DNA from: Candidatus Falkowbacteria bacterium
Lineage (GTDB): Bacteria; Patescibacteriota; Patescibacteriia; JACRDY01
Direction: 5' to 3'
Length of the DNA stretch: 21,024 bases
Assembly (NCBI GenBank): GCA_016218485.1
Contig: JACRDY010000068.1
Span: 1 to 21,024 of the forward strand
This document shows, piece after piece, positions 3,338 through 12,087 of this stretch (its first letter is position 1; each line of letters opens with the position of its first letter). Under the pieces are notes generated by a model. It was not told the DNA's origin, searched no databases, and was given only the letters and a program-made list of their open reading frames with translations. The position numbers and the translations under genes were made by a program.

Positions 3338-4612
<1,275 letters not shown>

Positions 4613-4647
4613 GGGTCAGGAGGGGAAGTTTTTCGCGAAAATTACAG

Positions 4648-4684
4648 GCCGGGTTCGCAAGGACCCGGCTTGATCTATTTTTTA
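4648..4684 (+). terminator. Candidate intrinsic terminator after purD
   Basis: Hairpin gccgggttcgcaaggacccggc followed by tctatttttt. A second imperfect hairpin plus T-run follows at ~4708-4745. Confidence 0.4.
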
Positions 4685-4854
4685 CTGTTTGGTGGCATCC
4701 CTGCTCGACTCACCCCGCACAATGCGGAGTGGGTGGGTTTTTATTGAATTACTTAAATTCTAAATTCAAAATCCTAAATTCCAAATACTTAAATCATAAA
4801 TTCTAAACACGCAATACCGAGTTTAAGATTTTGGATTTAGGTAGTATGATTCAT

Positions 4855-4911
4855 CCAGCACCTTCCAGAATATCCCGCAGCAAGCTGACGGGATATTCTG
4901 GAAGGTGCTGG
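4855..4911. repeat. Perfect long hairpin / palindromic element, copy 1 of the CCAGCACCTT family
   Basis: ccagcaccttccagaatatcccg-cagcaagctgac-gggatattctggaaggtgctgg, a 23-bp perfect stem. It is itself flanked by an inverted pair of AT-rich word-repeat arms (4745-4800 / 4912-4965). Confidence 0.7.
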
Positions 4912-4990
4912 ATTTATTTAGGATTTTGAATTTTAGGTTTATAATTTAATTCTTAGTTATGGGTAAGTCTCATTCTATAAATTTTCAGAG

Positions 4991-5083
4991 AGCGGGTAGG
5001 GGGAATCGCCAGCTCATCGGCAAAGTCGTGAGCTGATCCGCTAAAGCCCGAAGGGCTATGAGCGGAAACCCCCCTCCAGTTTG
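4991..5083 (-). pseudogene. Partial second copy of the tRNA-Gly 3' portion (anticodon-loop 3' side through the acceptor 3' strand) with a 59-nt structured insertion in the T-loop
   Basis: Minus-strand reading: AAACTGG-AGGGG-GGGGG-TTT[CCGCTCATAGCCCTTCGGGCTTTAGCGGATCAGCTCACGACTTTGCCGATGAGCTGGCG]ATT-CCCCC-TACCCGCT. It matches tRNA-Gly segments on both sides of the insert. The insert has two hairpins, one with a UUCG tetraloop. Confidence 0.5.
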
Positions 5084-5101
5084 CCTGCCCGCCAGAGCCT
5101 C

Positions 5102-5173
5102 AGCGGGTAGGGGGAATTGAACCCCCCTCTCCAGTTTGGAAAACTGGAATAATAACCGCTATACGATACCCGC
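5102..5173 (-). tRNA. tRNA-Gly (anticodon TCC)
   Basis: Reverse complement: GCGGGTA-TC-GTAT-AGCGGTTA-TTAT-T-CCAGT-TTTCCAA-ACTGG-AGAGG-GGGGG-TTCAATT-CCCCC-TACCCGC-T. Cloverleaf with U73 discriminator, closely similar to bacterial tRNA-Gly(UCC). No encoded CCA. Confidence 0.85.
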
Positions 5174-5191
5174 TCAGGCTGAGGCAGGCGG

Positions 5192-5213
5192 GGAAAACTG
5201 GAATAATAATCGC
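5192..5213 (-). pseudogene. Partial copy of the tRNA-Gly D-loop, D-stem 3' strand and anticodon stem/loop up to the anticodon, lying just 5' of the intact tRNA-Gly
   Basis: Minus-strand reading: GCGATTATTATT-CCAGT-TTTCC, against the intact gene GCGGTTATTATT-CCAGT-TTTCC. Together with the 4991-5083 fragment it forms an outer tRNA-Gly-like copy split in the anticodon loop by [spacer + intact tRNA-Gly + spacer]. Confidence 0.45.
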
Positions 5214-5228
5214 TTACCATTATATACA

Positions 5229-5304
5229 TGGTCGGGCCGGCGAGGCTCGAACTCGCGACCTCCTGGTCCCAAACCAGGCGCGCTACCAACTGCGCTACGG
5301 CCCG
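5229..5304 (-). tRNA. tRNA-Pro (anticodon TGG), CCA encoded
   Basis: Reverse complement: CGGGCCG-TA-GCGC-AGTTGGTA-GCGC-G-CCTGG-TTTGGGA-CCAGG-AGGTC-GCGAG-TTCGAGC-CTCGC-CGGCCCG-A-CCA. C1:G72 is typical of tRNA-Pro. Confidence 0.85.
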
Positions 5305-5325
5305 ACCATGTTTTTAATGATGAAA

Positions 5326-5448
5326 GCCGGGACGCGCTTCACCCGCCCAAATTTAGCTCTCATCATTAATGGTATCCGCGATTACCCACCATCGTGTAAT
5401 CAAAACGGACAACGTTTTTGTACCGAGCTAAATTTGGGCGGGTAAACC
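5326..5448 (-). repeat. Copy 1 of a ~125-nt terminally palindromic structured element (candidate ncRNA or MITE), immediately 5' of tRNA-Pro
   Basis: Terminal inverted repeats CACCCGCCCAAATTTAGCTC ... GAGCTAAATTTGGGCGGGTAAACC (~20 bp) enclose internal hairpins (CAAAACG-gacaa-CGTTTTG; GATTAC...GTAATC). Two further copies at 5756-5879 and 6149-6273 show the same organisation. Confidence 0.7.
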
Positions 5449-5465
5449 AACTGCGCTACGGCCCG
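5447..5465 (-). pseudogene. Partial copy of the tRNA-Pro 5' end (acceptor 5' strand through the D-loop), abutting element copy 1
   Basis: Minus-strand reading: CGGGCCGTAGCGCAGTTGG, identical to the first 19 nt of tRNA-Pro, followed directly by the element's TTTACCCGCC end. Confidence 0.5.
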
Positions 5466-5543
5466 TTAATAACAATTAACAGTTAACAATTAACCAGTAA
5501 CAAACAACCAAATATGCTAGTCAATTGTTAAGCGTTAATTTGT

Positions 5544-5640
5544 TAACTGTTAATTGGTGCCGAGGGGCAGAATTGCCCGCTCGTCTTCGCGAGCGGATCC
5601 GCTCAGGCCGAATGGCCATGAGCGGAAACTGCCGACGCTC
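5544..5640 (-). pseudogene. Partial second copy of the tRNA-Phe 3' portion with a ~50-nt structured insertion in the T-loop, and an encoded CCA
   Basis: Minus-strand reading: ...GGCGTC-GGCAG-TT[TCCGCTCATGGCCATTCGGCCTGAGCGGATCCGCTCGCGAAGACGAGCGG]GCAATT-CTGCC-CCTCGGC-A-CCA. The insert shares CCGCTCAT-GCC-TTCGG-C-T-AGCGGATC with the Gly-copy insert. Confidence 0.5.
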
Positions 5641-5662
5641 CCGCCAACTATTCCAGGCAATC

Positions 5663-5734
5663 TGCCGGGGGGCAGAATTGAACTGCCGACGCCATGCTCT
5701 TCAGGCATGCGCTCTACCACTGAGCTACCCCGGC
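5663..5734 (-). tRNA. tRNA-Phe (anticodon GAA)
   Basis: Reverse complement: GCCGGGG-TA-GCTC-AGTGGTA-GAGC-G-CATGC-CTGAAGA-GCATG-GCGTC-GGCAG-TTCAATT-CTGCC-CCCCGGC-A. No encoded CCA. It is flanked by the inverted leader/trailer GCAATCT...AGATTGC. Confidence 0.85.
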
Positions 5735-5755
5735 AGATTGCAAATTATAGTTGTA

Positions 5756-5879
5756 GGCGGGACGCTCTTCACCCGCCCAAATTTAGCTCTAGTAATTAAT
5801 GGTATCTGTGACTCTCTCACGCGCGTGTAATCCAAGCAGATAACGCTTTTGTGCCGAGCTAAATTTAGGCGGGTAAACC
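5756..5879 (-). repeat. Copy 2 of the ~125-nt element, immediately 5' of tRNA-Phe
   Basis: Same terminal inverted repeats (CACCCGCCCAAATTTAGCTC...GAGCTAAATTTAGGCGGGTAAACC). The interior is divergent, but the internal hairpin is kept by different base pairs (AAGC/GCTT versus AAAACG/CGTTTT in copy 1). Confidence 0.7.
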
Positions 5880-5918
5880 AGCCCCGAAGGGGCCCCTTTG
5901 GGGCTGAGCTACCTCGGC
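5880..5918 (-). pseudogene. GC-rich double hairpin plus a 15-nt fragment matching the 5' end of a tRNA-Phe variant
   Basis: Minus-strand reading: GCCGAGGTAGCTCAG-CCCCAAAGGGGCCCCTTCGGGGCTGG. GCCGAGG is exactly complementary to the CCTCGGC acceptor 3' strand of the partial Phe 3' copy at 5544-5640, and not to that of the intact tRNA-Phe (GCCGGGG/CCCCGGC). Confidence 0.45.
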
Positions 5919-5966
5919 TTACCCTGATATCTGAACGGAATATAGTATTAGCAAATAGACTGCATA

Positions 5967-6048
5967 GGGCGTACTTGGATTCCCCGCCTGCCAGCGCCTG
6001 CGGCGCAGCCGTTGGCGGGCAGGGAACCAAGGACCTCGTCATTATCAG
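5967..6048 (-). pseudogene. Partial second copy of the tRNA-Ile 3' portion with a 42-nt GC-rich hairpin insertion in the T-loop
   Basis: Minus-strand reading: CTGATAA-TGACG-AGGTC-CTTGG-TTC[CCTGCCCGCCAACGGCTGCGCCGCAGGCGCTGGCAGGCGGGG]AATCC-AAG-TACGCCC. The insert sits at the same T-loop position (after TTC) as in the Gly and Phe copies. Confidence 0.5.
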
Positions 6049-6066
6049 CTCCGCCCCGCACCAAAA

Positions 6067-6140
6067 TGCGCGTACTTGGATTTGAACCAAGGACCTCGTC
6101 ATTATCAGTGACGCGCTCTAACCAACTGAGCTATACGCGC
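6067..6140 (-). tRNA. tRNA-Ile (anticodon GAT)
   Basis: Reverse complement: GCGCGTA-TA-GCTC-AGTTGGTTA-GAGC-G-CGTCA-CTGATAA-TGACG-AGGTC-CTTGG-TTCAAAT-CCAAG-TACGCGC-A. No encoded CCA. Confidence 0.85.
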
Positions 6141-6148
6141 ATATTGCT

Positions 6149-6273
6149 GCGGGGTGAACGCTCTTCACCCGCCCAAATTTAGCCTTAGTAATTAAGGGTA
6201 ACCGCGATTACTCACCATCGTGTAATCTAAGCGGACAACCTTTTTGTACCGAGCTAAATTTAGGCGGGTAAAC
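6149..6273 (-). repeat. Copy 3 of the ~125-nt element, immediately 5' of tRNA-Ile
   Basis: The terminal inverted repeats and interior are highly similar to copy 1. It is followed at 6274-6313 by the same GC double hairpin and a 5' tRNA fragment GGACGTATAGCTCAG, which pairs with the TACGCCC strand of the partial Ile 3' copy. Confidence 0.7.
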
Positions 6274-6420
6274 CAGCCCCGAAGGGGCCCCTTTGGGGCT
6301 GAGCTATACGTCCGTCATCTAGAGTTTACTGCTAGGGTAGATAAAAATAACTACTCGGCAGTCTAATACAAAACGGTAAAAAAAGCAAGGTACGAGCAGG
6401 CTGATTTAGTCTTAATTTGA

Positions 6421-6449
6421 TTGATTAATTTAGATATTTCGGCTAGTAT
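6421..6449 (+). promoter_or_regulatory. Sigma70-like promoter for mnmA
   Basis: TTGATT, 17-nt spacer, TAGTAT, ending ~15 nt upstream of the ATG at 6464. Confidence 0.45.
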
Positions 6450-6463
6450 GCTAGAGCAGTTTT

Positions 6464-7564
6464 ATGACTCAAAAGAATAAGAAACCCACAGTCATCGTGG
6501 CCATGTCCGGCGGCGTGGATTCGTCTGTCGCGGCCGCTTTACTACAGCGGCAGGGCTATGACGTGCGCGGCGTGCATATCAAGATGTGGTCGGATCCGGA
6601 TATCCCCTGTTTGTTTACTTTTGACCGGATTGACGCCATGAAAGTAGCGATCCAGCTCGGCATTCCTTTCACCACTTGGGATCTGACGCGCGAATACCGC
6701 AGCGCGGTCGTGGACTACATGATCCGCGAGTTTAAGGCCGGTCGGACGCCCAACCCGGACGTGATGTGTAATAGCGAGATCAAGTTCGGGGTGTTTTTGG
6801 ATAAAGTTTTAAAAACGGGCGCGGAGTATTTGGCGACGGGGCATTATGTGAAAAAAGCGCAAAGCGCAAAGCGCAAAGCACAGAGCCAGTCCACGATACA
6901 AAAATTGTATATCGCGGCGGATGGGAATAAGGATCAGAGCTATTTTCTCTGGCGGCTGAATCAGCAGCAGCTGCGGCATAGCCTGTTTCCCCTGGGTGGT
7001 CTGACTAAGCCGCAGGTGCGAGTCCTCGCCAAACAGTTTAAGCTGCCTACCGCTGACAAGCCGGACTCGCAGGGTATCTGCTTCATCGGCGAGATTAACC
7101 TCAAGGATTTCCTGGAACACTACATCCCCCGCCGTCCGGGCACAATCGTGACCACGGACGGCCGCGTACTCGGCCATCATGAGGGTCTCCCCTTCTATAC
7201 CATTGGTCAGCGTGAGGGGCTGGGTCTGGGCGGTGGCATCCCCTACTATGTCGTTGCCAAAAATTTTAAAACCAATCAGCTGATTGTTGGCAGCCGGGGC
7301 GCGGCTGAACTGTTTCTGCCGAGTTTGCGGTTCACCGCCGCCAATTGGCTACTTGGCAGCGAGCCGAAACTGCCTCTGATCTGCCTGGCGCGTATCCGCT
7401 ACCGTCAGCCGCTGGAGCGTTGTCGGGTCAAACGCATCAGCGGTCGCGGCATTCGGGCGATCTATCAAGCGAAATTTACCGAGCCGCAGCGGGCCATTAC
7501 TCCCGGTCAGTCCATTGTGTTGTACAGGAGCGAGGAGATGATCGGGGGCGGGATTATTATTTAG
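6464..7564 (+). CDS. mnmA: tRNA-specific 2-thiouridylase (tRNA (5-methylaminomethyl-2-thiouridylate)-methyltransferase)
   Basis: A 366-aa ORF. PP-loop VAMSGGVDSSV near the N-terminus. Collinear with MnmA throughout (DQSYFL, GICFIGE, ITPGQS..GGGII C-terminus). It contains an ~8-codon in-frame insertion encoded by GCGCAAAGCGCAAAGCGCAAAGCACAGAGC at ~6856-6890. Confidence 0.85.
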   Translation: MTQKNKKPTVIVAMSGGVDSSVAAALLQRQGYDVRGVHIKMWSDPDIPCLFTFDRIDAMKVAIQLGIPFTTWDLTREYRSAVVDYMIREFKAGRTPNPDVMCNSEIKFGVFLDKVLKTGAEYLATGHYVKKAQSAKRKAQSQSTIQKLYIAADGNKDQSYFLWRLNQQQLRHSLFPLGGLTKPQVRVLAKQFKLPTADKPDSQGICFIGEINLKDFLEHYIPRRPGTIVTTDGRVLGHHEGLPFYTIGQREGLGLGGGIPYYVVAKNFKTNQLIVGSRGAAELFLPSLRFTAANWLLGSEPKLPLICLARIRYRQPLERCRVKRISGRGIRAIYQAKFTEPQRAITPGQSIVLYRSEEMIGGGIII

Positions 7565-11907: not shown

Positions 11908-11982
11908 TTGGAGGCCTGGAGGGGAATTGCACCCCTGCATAGAGGTTTTGCAGACCTCTGCCTTACTGCTTGGCTACCAGGC
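11908..11982 (-). tRNA. Candidate tRNA-Cys (anticodon GCA), CCA encoded, with a non-canonical T-loop
   Basis: Reverse complement: GGCCTGG-TA-GCCA-AGCAGTA-AGGC-A-GAGGT-CTGCAAA-ACCTC-TATGC-AGGGG-TGCAATT-CCCCT-CCAGGCC-T-CCA. Perfect 7-bp acceptor, and U73 as expected for Cys. The T-loop UGCAAUU lacks the usual T54-Psi55-C56 (it has G at 55), and the D-stem has 3 bp plus an A-A. Confidence 0.55.
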
Positions 11983-12087
11983 CGTAAATTTACGTGGTCT
12001 TACTATAGCAGGATAAACCTTTAAAATCAAGAGTTTTTGCTGATTAAGAGTTTAGAAATATTTTAGATAGGCTGTGGTAGACTATTT

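Follow-up and report, generated by a model that had tools for sequence, protein, structure and literature searches.

A contig of 21,024 nucleotides (nt) that carries the NCBI label 'Candidatus Falkowbacteria bacterium' (Patescibacteria, or candidate phyla radiation, CPR), and that is the whole of the stretch analysed here (the window), holds hairpin sequences inside the T-loops of partial tRNA copies, next to intact genes for the same tRNAs. Two of these inserts, in copies of tRNA-Gly and tRNA-Phe, belong to one family of short double hairpins, HP. We consider it probable that HP is a site-specific, non-autonomous hairpin element that acts at the level of DNA, that is mobilised by a small GIY-YIG nuclease and that is tolerated in redundant tRNA copies only.

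Hairpin inserts in the T-loops of partial tRNA copies

The intact (inner) tRNA-Gly, tRNA-Phe and tRNA-Ile genes of the window each lie within an outer, disrupted copy of the tRNA in question, on the minus strand. Re-examination of the sequence bore out the three partial tRNA 3′ copies (Gly, Phe and Ile, minus strand), each with a hairpin insert in its T-loop, that a first-pass annotation had described; in the sense of the tRNA, they lie directly 3′ of the intact Gly, Phe and Ile genes. All three inserts had been placed at one fixed T-loop position. This holds to within 1 nt, but the positions are not strictly identical: the Gly insert (junctions GTT/../CAATT) and the Phe insert (GTT/../CGATT) are both located between T55 and C56, whereas the Ile insert follows C56. 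The Phe insert, formerly placed about 11 nt off (at about 5565-5615), spans 5576-5626, and the coordinates of the Gly insert were corrected to 5009-5066. The three inserts are the following.

5009-5066, plus strand: HP copy 1, a double hairpin of 58 nt (covariance model, 75.7 bits, E = 2e-14)
5576-5626, plus strand: HP copy 2, 51 nt (covariance model, 62.2 bits, E = 2e-11)
5983-6023, minus strand: HP2, a GC-rich hairpin of a separate family, in the outer tRNA-Ile T-loop (GGTTC/../GAATCC)

Exactly two occurrences of the motif CCGCTCAT..AGCGGATC, already reported as common to the Gly and Phe inserts, are present in the window (minus strand, 5035-5065 and 5596-5625), with none expected from 100 shuffles. 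Both inserts are, as proposed, double hairpins, with folding energies of -28.8 (Gly) and -35.7 kcal/mol (Phe) and z-scores of -3.95 and -6.16, and they are members of the same family, HP. HP copy 1 reads B-then-A on the plus strand, antisense to the tRNA, and is inserted at AATCG^AAC (the caret marks the point of insertion) in the outer tRNA-Gly T-loop; the site of HP copy 2 is AATTG^AAC in the outer tRNA-Phe T-loop. The Ile insert (-33.7 kcal/mol) is indeed a different GC-rich hairpin, related to the spacers of the intact tRNA-Gly gene: its arms, CCTGCCCGCCA and GGCAGGCGGG, are the exact reverse complement of the spacers that flank this gene.

Across the family, HP measures 51-78 nt and is made of two GC-rich hairpins that abut; each has a conserved foot (CCGCTC...GAGCGG), which is invariant, and a distal stem that covaries. 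In the alignment, 95.9% of the cells are paired and compensatory changes are found in 11 of the 26 pairs; none of 500 shuffles reached the observed pairing, and slid controls were at most 39% paired. The structure of HP is under selection. HP is equally stable on both strands.

Using covariance model R1, 18 HP sites were detected in 87 kb. HP is inserted precisely between the G and the A of the target YYG^AR, with no target duplication. In the B-then-A orientation, the left flank ends in YYG at 16 of the 18 sites and the right flank starts with AR at 17, and at every site for which the intact tRNA sequence is available the insertion is base-exact. The first-pass annotation had named frequent occurrence of the motif outside tRNA contexts as the outcome that would speak against it; instead, both the covariance model and a scan free of tRNA flanks (see below) place HP in tRNA-derived sequence, at 16 of the 18 sites (4 in T-loops, 6 in D-loops and 6 in anticodon loops), and a seventeenth, in locus L127, has a D-loop-like right flank. 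The T-loop is not the only site, however; D-loops and anticodon loops are used as often. The target takes the form TTCG^AA (or the complement TTG^AA) in T-loops, YTG^AR in D-loops and TTG^AAA or TCG^AAA in anticodon loops.

The orientation of HP tracks the strand that carries YYGAR. The T-loops of the window read TTCAATT, with YYGAR on the antisense strand only, and the HP copies of the window are antisense to the tRNA; in L122 and L128, the loops read TTCGAAT and HP is in the sense orientation there. Moreover, HP is found in truncated fragments that lack the partner strand of the stem (L122; L128, 2218-2295), and an intact copy of the same tRNA always adjoins the HP-bearing fragments. The orientation rule, the exact five-base target, the truncated fragments that carry HP and a stability that does not differ between the strands point to HP acting on DNA, and not as an intron or an RNA expansion. 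Of the earlier idea of a site-specific insertion by a recombinase or an intron-like element, the specificity for a site and the tie to tRNA loops stand, but no tyrosine or serine recombinase was seen in the 16 scanned ORFs of the window or the eight related loci, and the intron fails.

HP in other Patescibacteria and its link to a GIY-YIG gene

When metagenomes were scanned with a strict pattern that included no tRNA flank, two contigs matched (L122 and L123), and both matches are inside tRNA fragments. In L122, HP interrupts the T-loop of a tRNA 3′ fragment (GTTCG/../AATCCCTCCCTCTCCGCCA). In L123, HP abuts a tRNA-Ser 5′ fragment, and only a GIY-YIG gene of 82 codons lies between HP and an intact tRNA-Ser. 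A scan of 596 Gb of genome contigs with the 16-base motif of the first-pass annotation, for which about 2000 chance matches were estimated, is uninformative either way; all 120 loci among the matches listed look like chance, being in coding DNA of unrelated taxa. No HP was detected with the covariance model in about 108 kb of control DNA around Patescibacteria mnmA homologs. Scans of viral collections gave one HP-like chance match in a coding region and no match to TIR-115, another hairpin family of the window (see below), and BLAST against phage genomes returned nothing for HP or TIR-115.

The protein linked to HP is a GIY-YIG nuclease of 80 residues, made up of the catalytic domain only (Pfam PF01541, E = 1.9e-13), with a weak match to a group I intron endonuclease family. 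The active-site residues Y, Y, G, R, H, N and E are invariant in the family and a basic tail is conserved. The L123 protein has 30 homologs; of the six that carry a taxon label, five are from Patescibacteria and one is from Saprospiraceae. The contexts of eight of the 30 were examined, and these are eight distinct loci (L125, L127, L128, L131, L135, L137, L138 and L139). HP was found beside the GIY-YIG gene in all eight, by nhmmer profile, regular expression and covariance model, as in the query locus L123. In six loci the distance from HP to the downstream GIY-YIG start codon is 7-40 nt; L128 has HP about 160 nt upstream and 14 nt downstream of the gene, and in L138 HP lies about 21 nt downstream of each copy of the gene. 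HP is co-oriented with the gene wherever the strand call is clear, and the gene adjoins tRNA-Ser in all loci. In the related loci the target gene has an intact GIY-YIG catalytic domain encoded at its side, and in other Patescibacteria HP, the 80-residue GIY-YIG gene and tRNA-Ser make up, in this order and with HP at the upstream end, a cassette of about 0.35 kb.

In L128, an intact tRNA-Ser(GCT) is followed by a full pseudo-copy, whose D-loop holds HP and whose T-loop holds another GC-rich hairpin, and by the GIY-YIG gene; next is an intact tRNA-Ser(UGA), preceded by a 5′ fragment of this tRNA with HP in its D-loop and followed by a 3′ fragment whose T-loop carries HP. This layout, in which an intact tRNA stands between a 5′ and a 3′ fragment that both carry HP, repeats that of the window. 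L138 is built of tandem units of a tRNA 3′ part, the GIY-YIG gene, an anticodon-stem fragment and HP. In L131, the two hairpins of HP are inserted separately, in the D-loop and the anticodon loop of a single fragment, and the basic unit may therefore be one hairpin. The GC content of HP (59-72%) exceeds that of the related loci (31-48%), and the two HP copies of the window are different hairpin subtypes, each with its closest relatives in other genomes; this fits a horizontal spread of HP. Two GIY-YIG genes are stacked in tandem in L127 (5001-5658) and L138 (4001-4661), with a tRNA-Ser part after each (L127) or before each (L138), as though one tRNA gene had undergone repeated invasion.

Insertion of HP would kill the tRNA, so that HP would persist only in redundant copies or fragments beside an intact copy. 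The GIY-YIG nuclease would cut at YYG^AR, and repair would copy in HP or the whole cassette. HP would then be the non-autonomous form of the cassette of HP, GIY-YIG gene and tRNA, much as a repetitive extragenic palindrome (REP) relates to its REP-associated tyrosine transposase (RAYT), or a miniature inverted-repeat transposable element (MITE) to its transposase; the HP copies of the window, with no GIY-YIG gene in 21 kb, look as non-autonomous copies would. Nested and partial tRNA duplicates could arise from a cassette that carries a replacement tRNA or part of one. Possibly, although here we are doubtful, HP and the mini GIY-YIG nuclease are together a previously unrecognised bacterial selfish element, which would attack the tRNA loop at YYG^AR, persist by bringing or creating a replacement tRNA (or tRNA part) and so yield 'Russian-doll' genes. 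The working gene would sit inside the wreck of its predecessor, the acceptor differences described below would come from the foreign lineage of the inner gene, and cloverleaf or hairpin loops formed by the DNA might be what is recognised. In the full-text literature we found no description of hairpin insertions in tRNA loops, nor of a GIY-YIG/tRNA-Ser cassette, in Patescibacteria.

Architecture of the nested tRNA units

Four intact tRNA genes, found with both ARAGORN and Rfam, lie on the minus strand between purD and mnmA, and the insertions are absent from all four. The parts of the cluster are listed by position.

4990-5083, minus strand: outer tRNA-Gly 3′ part, from the 3′ side of the anticodon loop to the 3′ end of the acceptor, split by HP copy 1
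5084-5192, minus strand: inner tRNA-Gly block, with complementary arms (5084-5100 and 5175-5192) around 5101-5174
5101-5174, minus strand: intact tRNA-Gly(UCC)
5193-5214, minus strand: outer tRNA-Gly 5′ part, D-arm to anticodon loop, 22 of 23 positions matching the inner tRNA
5229-5304, minus strand: intact tRNA-Pro(UGG), whose leader and trailer pair with each other
5338-5465, minus strand: outer tRNA-Pro 5′ fragment (5446-5465, 20 of 20 positions identical to the inner tRNA) with TIR-115
5557-5637, minus strand: outer tRNA-Phe 3′ part, variable loop to ACCA, with acceptor 3′ strand CCTCGGC, interrupted by HP copy 2
5638-5762, minus strand: inner tRNA-Phe block, in which a long leader/trailer helix (TCCCGCC..GGCGGGA and others) bears the tRNA (5662-5735) at its tip
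5662-5735, minus strand: intact tRNA-Phe(GAA)
5763-5919, minus strand: outer tRNA-Phe 5′ part (GCCGAGGTAGCTCAG .. TGGT .. AGAGCG), with a palindrome (5882-5904) and TIR-115 (5768-5878) inserted in the D-loop
5966-6046, minus strand: outer tRNA-Ile 3′ part, running from position 33 to the 3′ end and split by HP2
6047-6152, minus strand: inner tRNA-Ile block at outer position 32/33, with pairing arms CCCCGCA/TGCGGGG
6066-6141, minus strand: intact tRNA-Ile(GAU)
6153-6313, minus strand: outer tRNA-Ile 5′ part (GGACGTATAGCTCAG .. TGGT .. AGAGCGTTCAC), with a palindrome (6275-6297) and TIR-115 (6164-6271) inserted in the D-loop

The outer copies carry clean insertions of hairpins at the D-loop, the anticodon position and the T-loop, all of them loop positions, and excision restores the tRNA sequence. 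In the outer Ile copy, the order is GGACGTATAGCTCAG, the 23-nt palindrome, TGGT, TIR-115 (108 nt), AGAGCGTTCAC, the inner tRNA-Ile between its arms, TGATAATGACGAGGTCCTTGGTTC, the hairpin and GAATCCAAGTACGCCCT. The arms of the inner tRNA-Gly form a helix that extends the acceptor stem, and the whole block is located at outer position 36/37. The outer Phe copy follows the plan of the Ile copy, except that the leader/trailer helix of the inner tRNA replaces the outer anticodon arm, and the outer Pro copy consists of the 5′ fragment and TIR-115 only. Whole units fold as nested cloverleaves, with z-scores of -8.45, -8.29 and -6.66. In Gly and Ile, the two outer parts (5′ and 3′) meet exactly at a single anticodon-loop position, and tandem-duplication debris was therefore rejected for these two units. 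This exact abutment, the allele-like differences between outer and inner acceptor stems, and a tRNA fragment in L135 that diverges strongly from the adjoining intact tRNA, suggest that the working tRNA, or part of it, was brought in and the resident copy left as a shell.

An independent Logan assembly of the same sample matched positions 6249-6470 of the window base for base, on a contig that ends at the repeat. This match, together with the recurrence of the same architecture in unrelated assemblies (L128 and L138), rules out an assembly artefact.

TIR-115 is present in three copies (5338-5445, 5768-5878 and 6164-6271), which are 80-90% identical and form a long hairpin of about 108 nt. It has arms ACCCGCCYAAATTTAGCTC and is cleanly inserted at TGGT/AG in outer tRNA D-loops; the junction in the outer Pro D-loop reads TTGGT/AGCGCG. 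All three copies are 4.5-6.5 kcal/mol more stable on the tRNA-sense strand, owing to G.U pairs. TIR-115 had no match in Rfam and no relative in about 100 kb of other Patescibacteria loci, and in the data examined TIR-115, the 23-nt palindrome and the Ile hairpin were all without relatives outside the window. These three appear to be analogous hairpin elements of other families. Additional GC-rich hairpin inserts that belong to other families are found in AT-rich genomes, in tRNA-Ser pseudo-copies of L128 (1668-1723), L127 (5287-5326) and L138 (3658-3770), where they occupy T-loop and D-arm regions. HP is thus one of several families that use tRNA loops.

Other repeats surround the tRNA genes. 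The interval from the outer Phe 3′ end to the outer Pro 5′ fragment holds an AT-rich palindrome (5473-5556, CAATTAACAGTTAACAA .. TTGTTAACTGTTAATTG), in which 17 of 17 bases are complementary. Inverted arrays of AT-rich, TAAATTC/TAAATCC-like units occupy 4740-4950, directly 3′ of the tRNA cluster, and flank a perfect 25-bp hairpin (4853-4913). Similar arrays (at most 93% identity over 27 nt) are present in L128 (648-728 and 6091-6108) and L138 (3859-3877); in these other Patescibacteria loci they adjoin tRNAs and one HP copy. Two open reading frames (ORFs) that span the tRNA cluster, of 101 residues (5525-5830, plus strand) and 125 residues (5725-6102, minus strand), are almost certainly spurious and created by the repeats.

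The window as a whole has a GC content of 51%. A fifth tRNA gene, for Cys (11909-11983), is ordinary and has no partial copies. For the MnmA protein of the window, the protein collection holds no relative above 64% identity. Stretches of 1.5-1.9 kb without called genes and without HP lie near mnmA homologs in L144 (1837-3762), L145 (534-2043) and L140 (15689-17509); Rfam gave only one tRNA in the whole of locus L140 and none in the L144 stretch, and ARAGORN found no tRNA in locus L145. Region 1-2005 of the window includes the 3′ two-thirds of a bacterial 16S rRNA, ending at 1021; after it, the group II intron D1-D4 model matches at 1370-1483 (48.3 bits, gathering score 35), and an ORF at 1400-2005 encodes a LAGLIDADG endonuclease (Pfam E = 5.8e-20). 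A 2026 survey found complete Patescibacteria genomes to be without group II introns (PMC13011429).

Alternative explanations and related systems

Several observations weigh against a DNA element that targets tRNA loops and depends on a GIY-YIG nuclease. The sites in L127 and at 6028-6081 of L128 break the left-flank rule, and the latter, between type IV secretion-like genes (TraG-like and TraC-like; flanks TTAAG/../AATGGTGGTAG), is the sole HP copy outside recognisable tRNA sequence. The DNA that holds the 18 HP sites has 1296 YYGAR sites; a five-base target is too common to explain a restriction to tRNA loops, and an extra determinant is therefore needed, for example hairpin-loop structure or homology-dependent copying. 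The outer copies retain intact acceptor, D and T stems, and, relative to the inner acceptors, the outer ones carry compensating changes (Phe G5-C68 to A-T, Ile C2-G71 to G-C), which are not expected of simple decaying pseudogenes. The sample is small, with about 12-14 independent insertions, and most HP loci were found via the GIY-YIG gene. The 21-kb window has no GIY-YIG gene, and no nuclease or transposase candidate except the unrelated LAGLIDADG ORF. Finally, GIY-YIG enzymes are hydrolytic and we know of no strand-transfer activity among them, which leaves the chemistry of HP insertion unexplained.

The retained stems are also what would be seen if the nested units worked as RNA, the outer copy being a functional tRNA-like scaffold or an intron-bearing tRNA and HP a module for RNA structure or processing. 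The three loops of the outer copy would carry expansion hairpins, and RNase P and RNase Z would free the inner tRNA. That all insertions are in loops and that the units fold as nested cloverleaves agrees with this, as does the outer Phe acceptor stem, which is perfect, ends in ACCA and shows covariation against the inner stem; TIR-115 is more stable on the tRNA-sense strand in each of its copies, and elsewhere HP lies just upstream of the GIY-YIG start codon, resembling an element of a 5′ untranslated region. However, HP is found in both orientations relative to the tRNA, according to the strand of YYGAR, its stability does not depend on the strand, it occurs in truncated fragments that are unable to fold as tRNA, and an intact copy is always alongside. 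Moreover, the outer Ile copy has a broken anticodon stem and a broken acceptor pair (A3.C70), the outer Gly copy lacks the 5′ acceptor strand and the outer Phe copy the anticodon arm, and no Rfam family, group I core or bulge-helix-bulge was found. We regard a role of HP as RNA as quite unlikely. A group I intron was rejected, with no match to Rfam Intron_gpI at the gathering threshold or at E ≤ 5 in 4600-6480 and with inserts of 41-58 nt in the T-loops of partial copies, and so was an archaeal-type tRNA intron: the predicted folds, in which the insert ends pair mutually and are flanked by unpaired T-loop bases, contain no 3-4-3 bulge-helix-bulge, and HP occurs in both orientations and in truncated fragments.

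Could HP be mobilised by another enzyme? Single-strand transposition by HUH enzymes, as in IS608 and ISDra2, is marked by hairpins with a foot, by insertion 3′ of a short motif without duplication and by an orientation tied to the target strand. HP has hairpin ends with a conserved foot and covarying stems, and is inserted 3′ of a short left-flank motif (YYG at 16 of 18 sites) with no duplication and with an orientation tied to the target strand. HP might thus be similar to REPs or to palindrome-associated transposable elements (PATEs) and be moved by an unlinked HUH transposase (IS200/IS605 TnpA or RAYT-type), the GIY-YIG gene being a mere neighbour that shares the preference for tRNA genes. 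Yet no Y1/HUH transposase is present among the Pfam-annotated genes of about 140 kb of distinct sequence, the gene flanked by the repeat is the GIY-YIG gene, and all eight GIY-YIG homologs have HP in a fixed orientation, mostly a few nt upstream; the hairpins of HP are also at the very ends of the element, whereas those of IS200/IS605 are subterminal. We consider an HUH enzyme rather unlikely. A DDE-type MITE was rejected, as the inverted termini (CCGCTC/GAGCGG) are present but a target-site duplication is not. Shared tRNA segments, as expected of an integrase-mediated element, are present, and the partial tRNA copies could be attL/attR remnants of decayed integrase elements in anticodon loops or T-loops, with the hairpins as leftover att-arm sequence: as in islands that integrate into tRNA genes, 3′ fragments beginning in the anticodon loop or T-loop flank intact tRNAs, and L138 has tandem units of tRNA 3′ part, gene and fragment. 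But no tyrosine or serine recombinase was found in the 16 scanned ORFs of the window or in the eight related loci, within 4-5 kb, the units are only about 20-400 nt, HP is clean inside contiguous tRNA copies with tRNA sequence on both sides, the outer Gly and Ile parts abut exactly at one anticodon-loop position, and D-loop sites are as common as the others. With no recombinase in these ORFs and loci, an integrase-mediated element was rejected, and remnants of decayed ones seem to us very improbable.

Patescibacteria have tiny genomes with mostly single-copy tRNA genes, yet here wrecked tRNA copies are layered and carry conserved hairpin inserts. If HP is mobile and driven by the nuclease, it would be selfish DNA that exploits essential RNA genes in a new way, and could drive tRNA gene turnover and horizontal replacement in Patescibacteria. 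A putative system of an 80-residue GIY-YIG nuclease, a hairpin partner and a five-base target would be unusually small for a site- or structure-specific nuclease system. Nested tRNA loci also mislead tRNA annotation, through partial matches and spurious ORFs such as the two described above, and break short-read assemblies.

Read as a non-autonomous element of DNA, HP resembles the REPs and bacterial interspersed mosaic elements (BIMEs) served by RAYTs, and the PATEs of IS200/IS605, in being a short non-coding hairpin repeat with a conserved foot, in having one small nuclease gene that is itself adjoined by the repeat, and in motif-specific insertion with no target duplication. It differs from them in its partner, GIY-YIG instead of an HUH/Y1 enzyme, in hairpins that reach the termini, and in its location, as REPs and PATEs are generally intergenic whereas HP has few copies, at positions that encode tRNA loops. 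Like the archaeal non-canonical introns and the group I introns of Patescibacteria tRNA genes, HP interrupts loops (D-, anticodon and T-loops), and related sequences are common to different tRNAs. The recent survey of introns in Patescibacteria tRNAs covers group I introns in anticodon loops only (PMC13011429). Unlike these introns, HP has no bulge-helix-bulge or group I core, is independent of orientation and is located in non-functional copies beside an intact gene.

With tRNA-integrating islands and phages HP shares the sublocations within the tRNA and the displaced partial copy, and perhaps the restoration of the tRNA by element-borne sequence; the sublocation classes of integration in tRNA genes (anticodon loop, T-loop) are reportedly those set out by Williams in 2002. 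HP differs in that no integrase was seen, in units of 0.05-0.4 kb, in the additional use of D-loops and in its clean hairpins. Free-standing GIY-YIG homing endonucleases (T4 Seg proteins, including SegB in a tRNA gene cluster, and I-TevI) have the catalytic domain in common with the partner of HP; their genes likewise lie between or inside essential RNA genes, with stacked copies and duplicated target fragments around the gene. The HP-linked protein stands apart by its 80 residues without a DNA-binding domain, by the absence of an intron and by the conserved double hairpin. The mitochondrial double-hairpin elements of Allomyces and chytrids and the GC clusters of yeast mitochondria (PMC4478555) are, like HP, about 50 nt long, GC-rich in AT-rich genomes and made of two hairpins. 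They are mobile and can enter structural RNA genes, with no known mobilising enzyme. HP, in contrast, is bacterial, has a defined YYG^AR target in tRNA loops and is consistently linked to a GIY-YIG gene.

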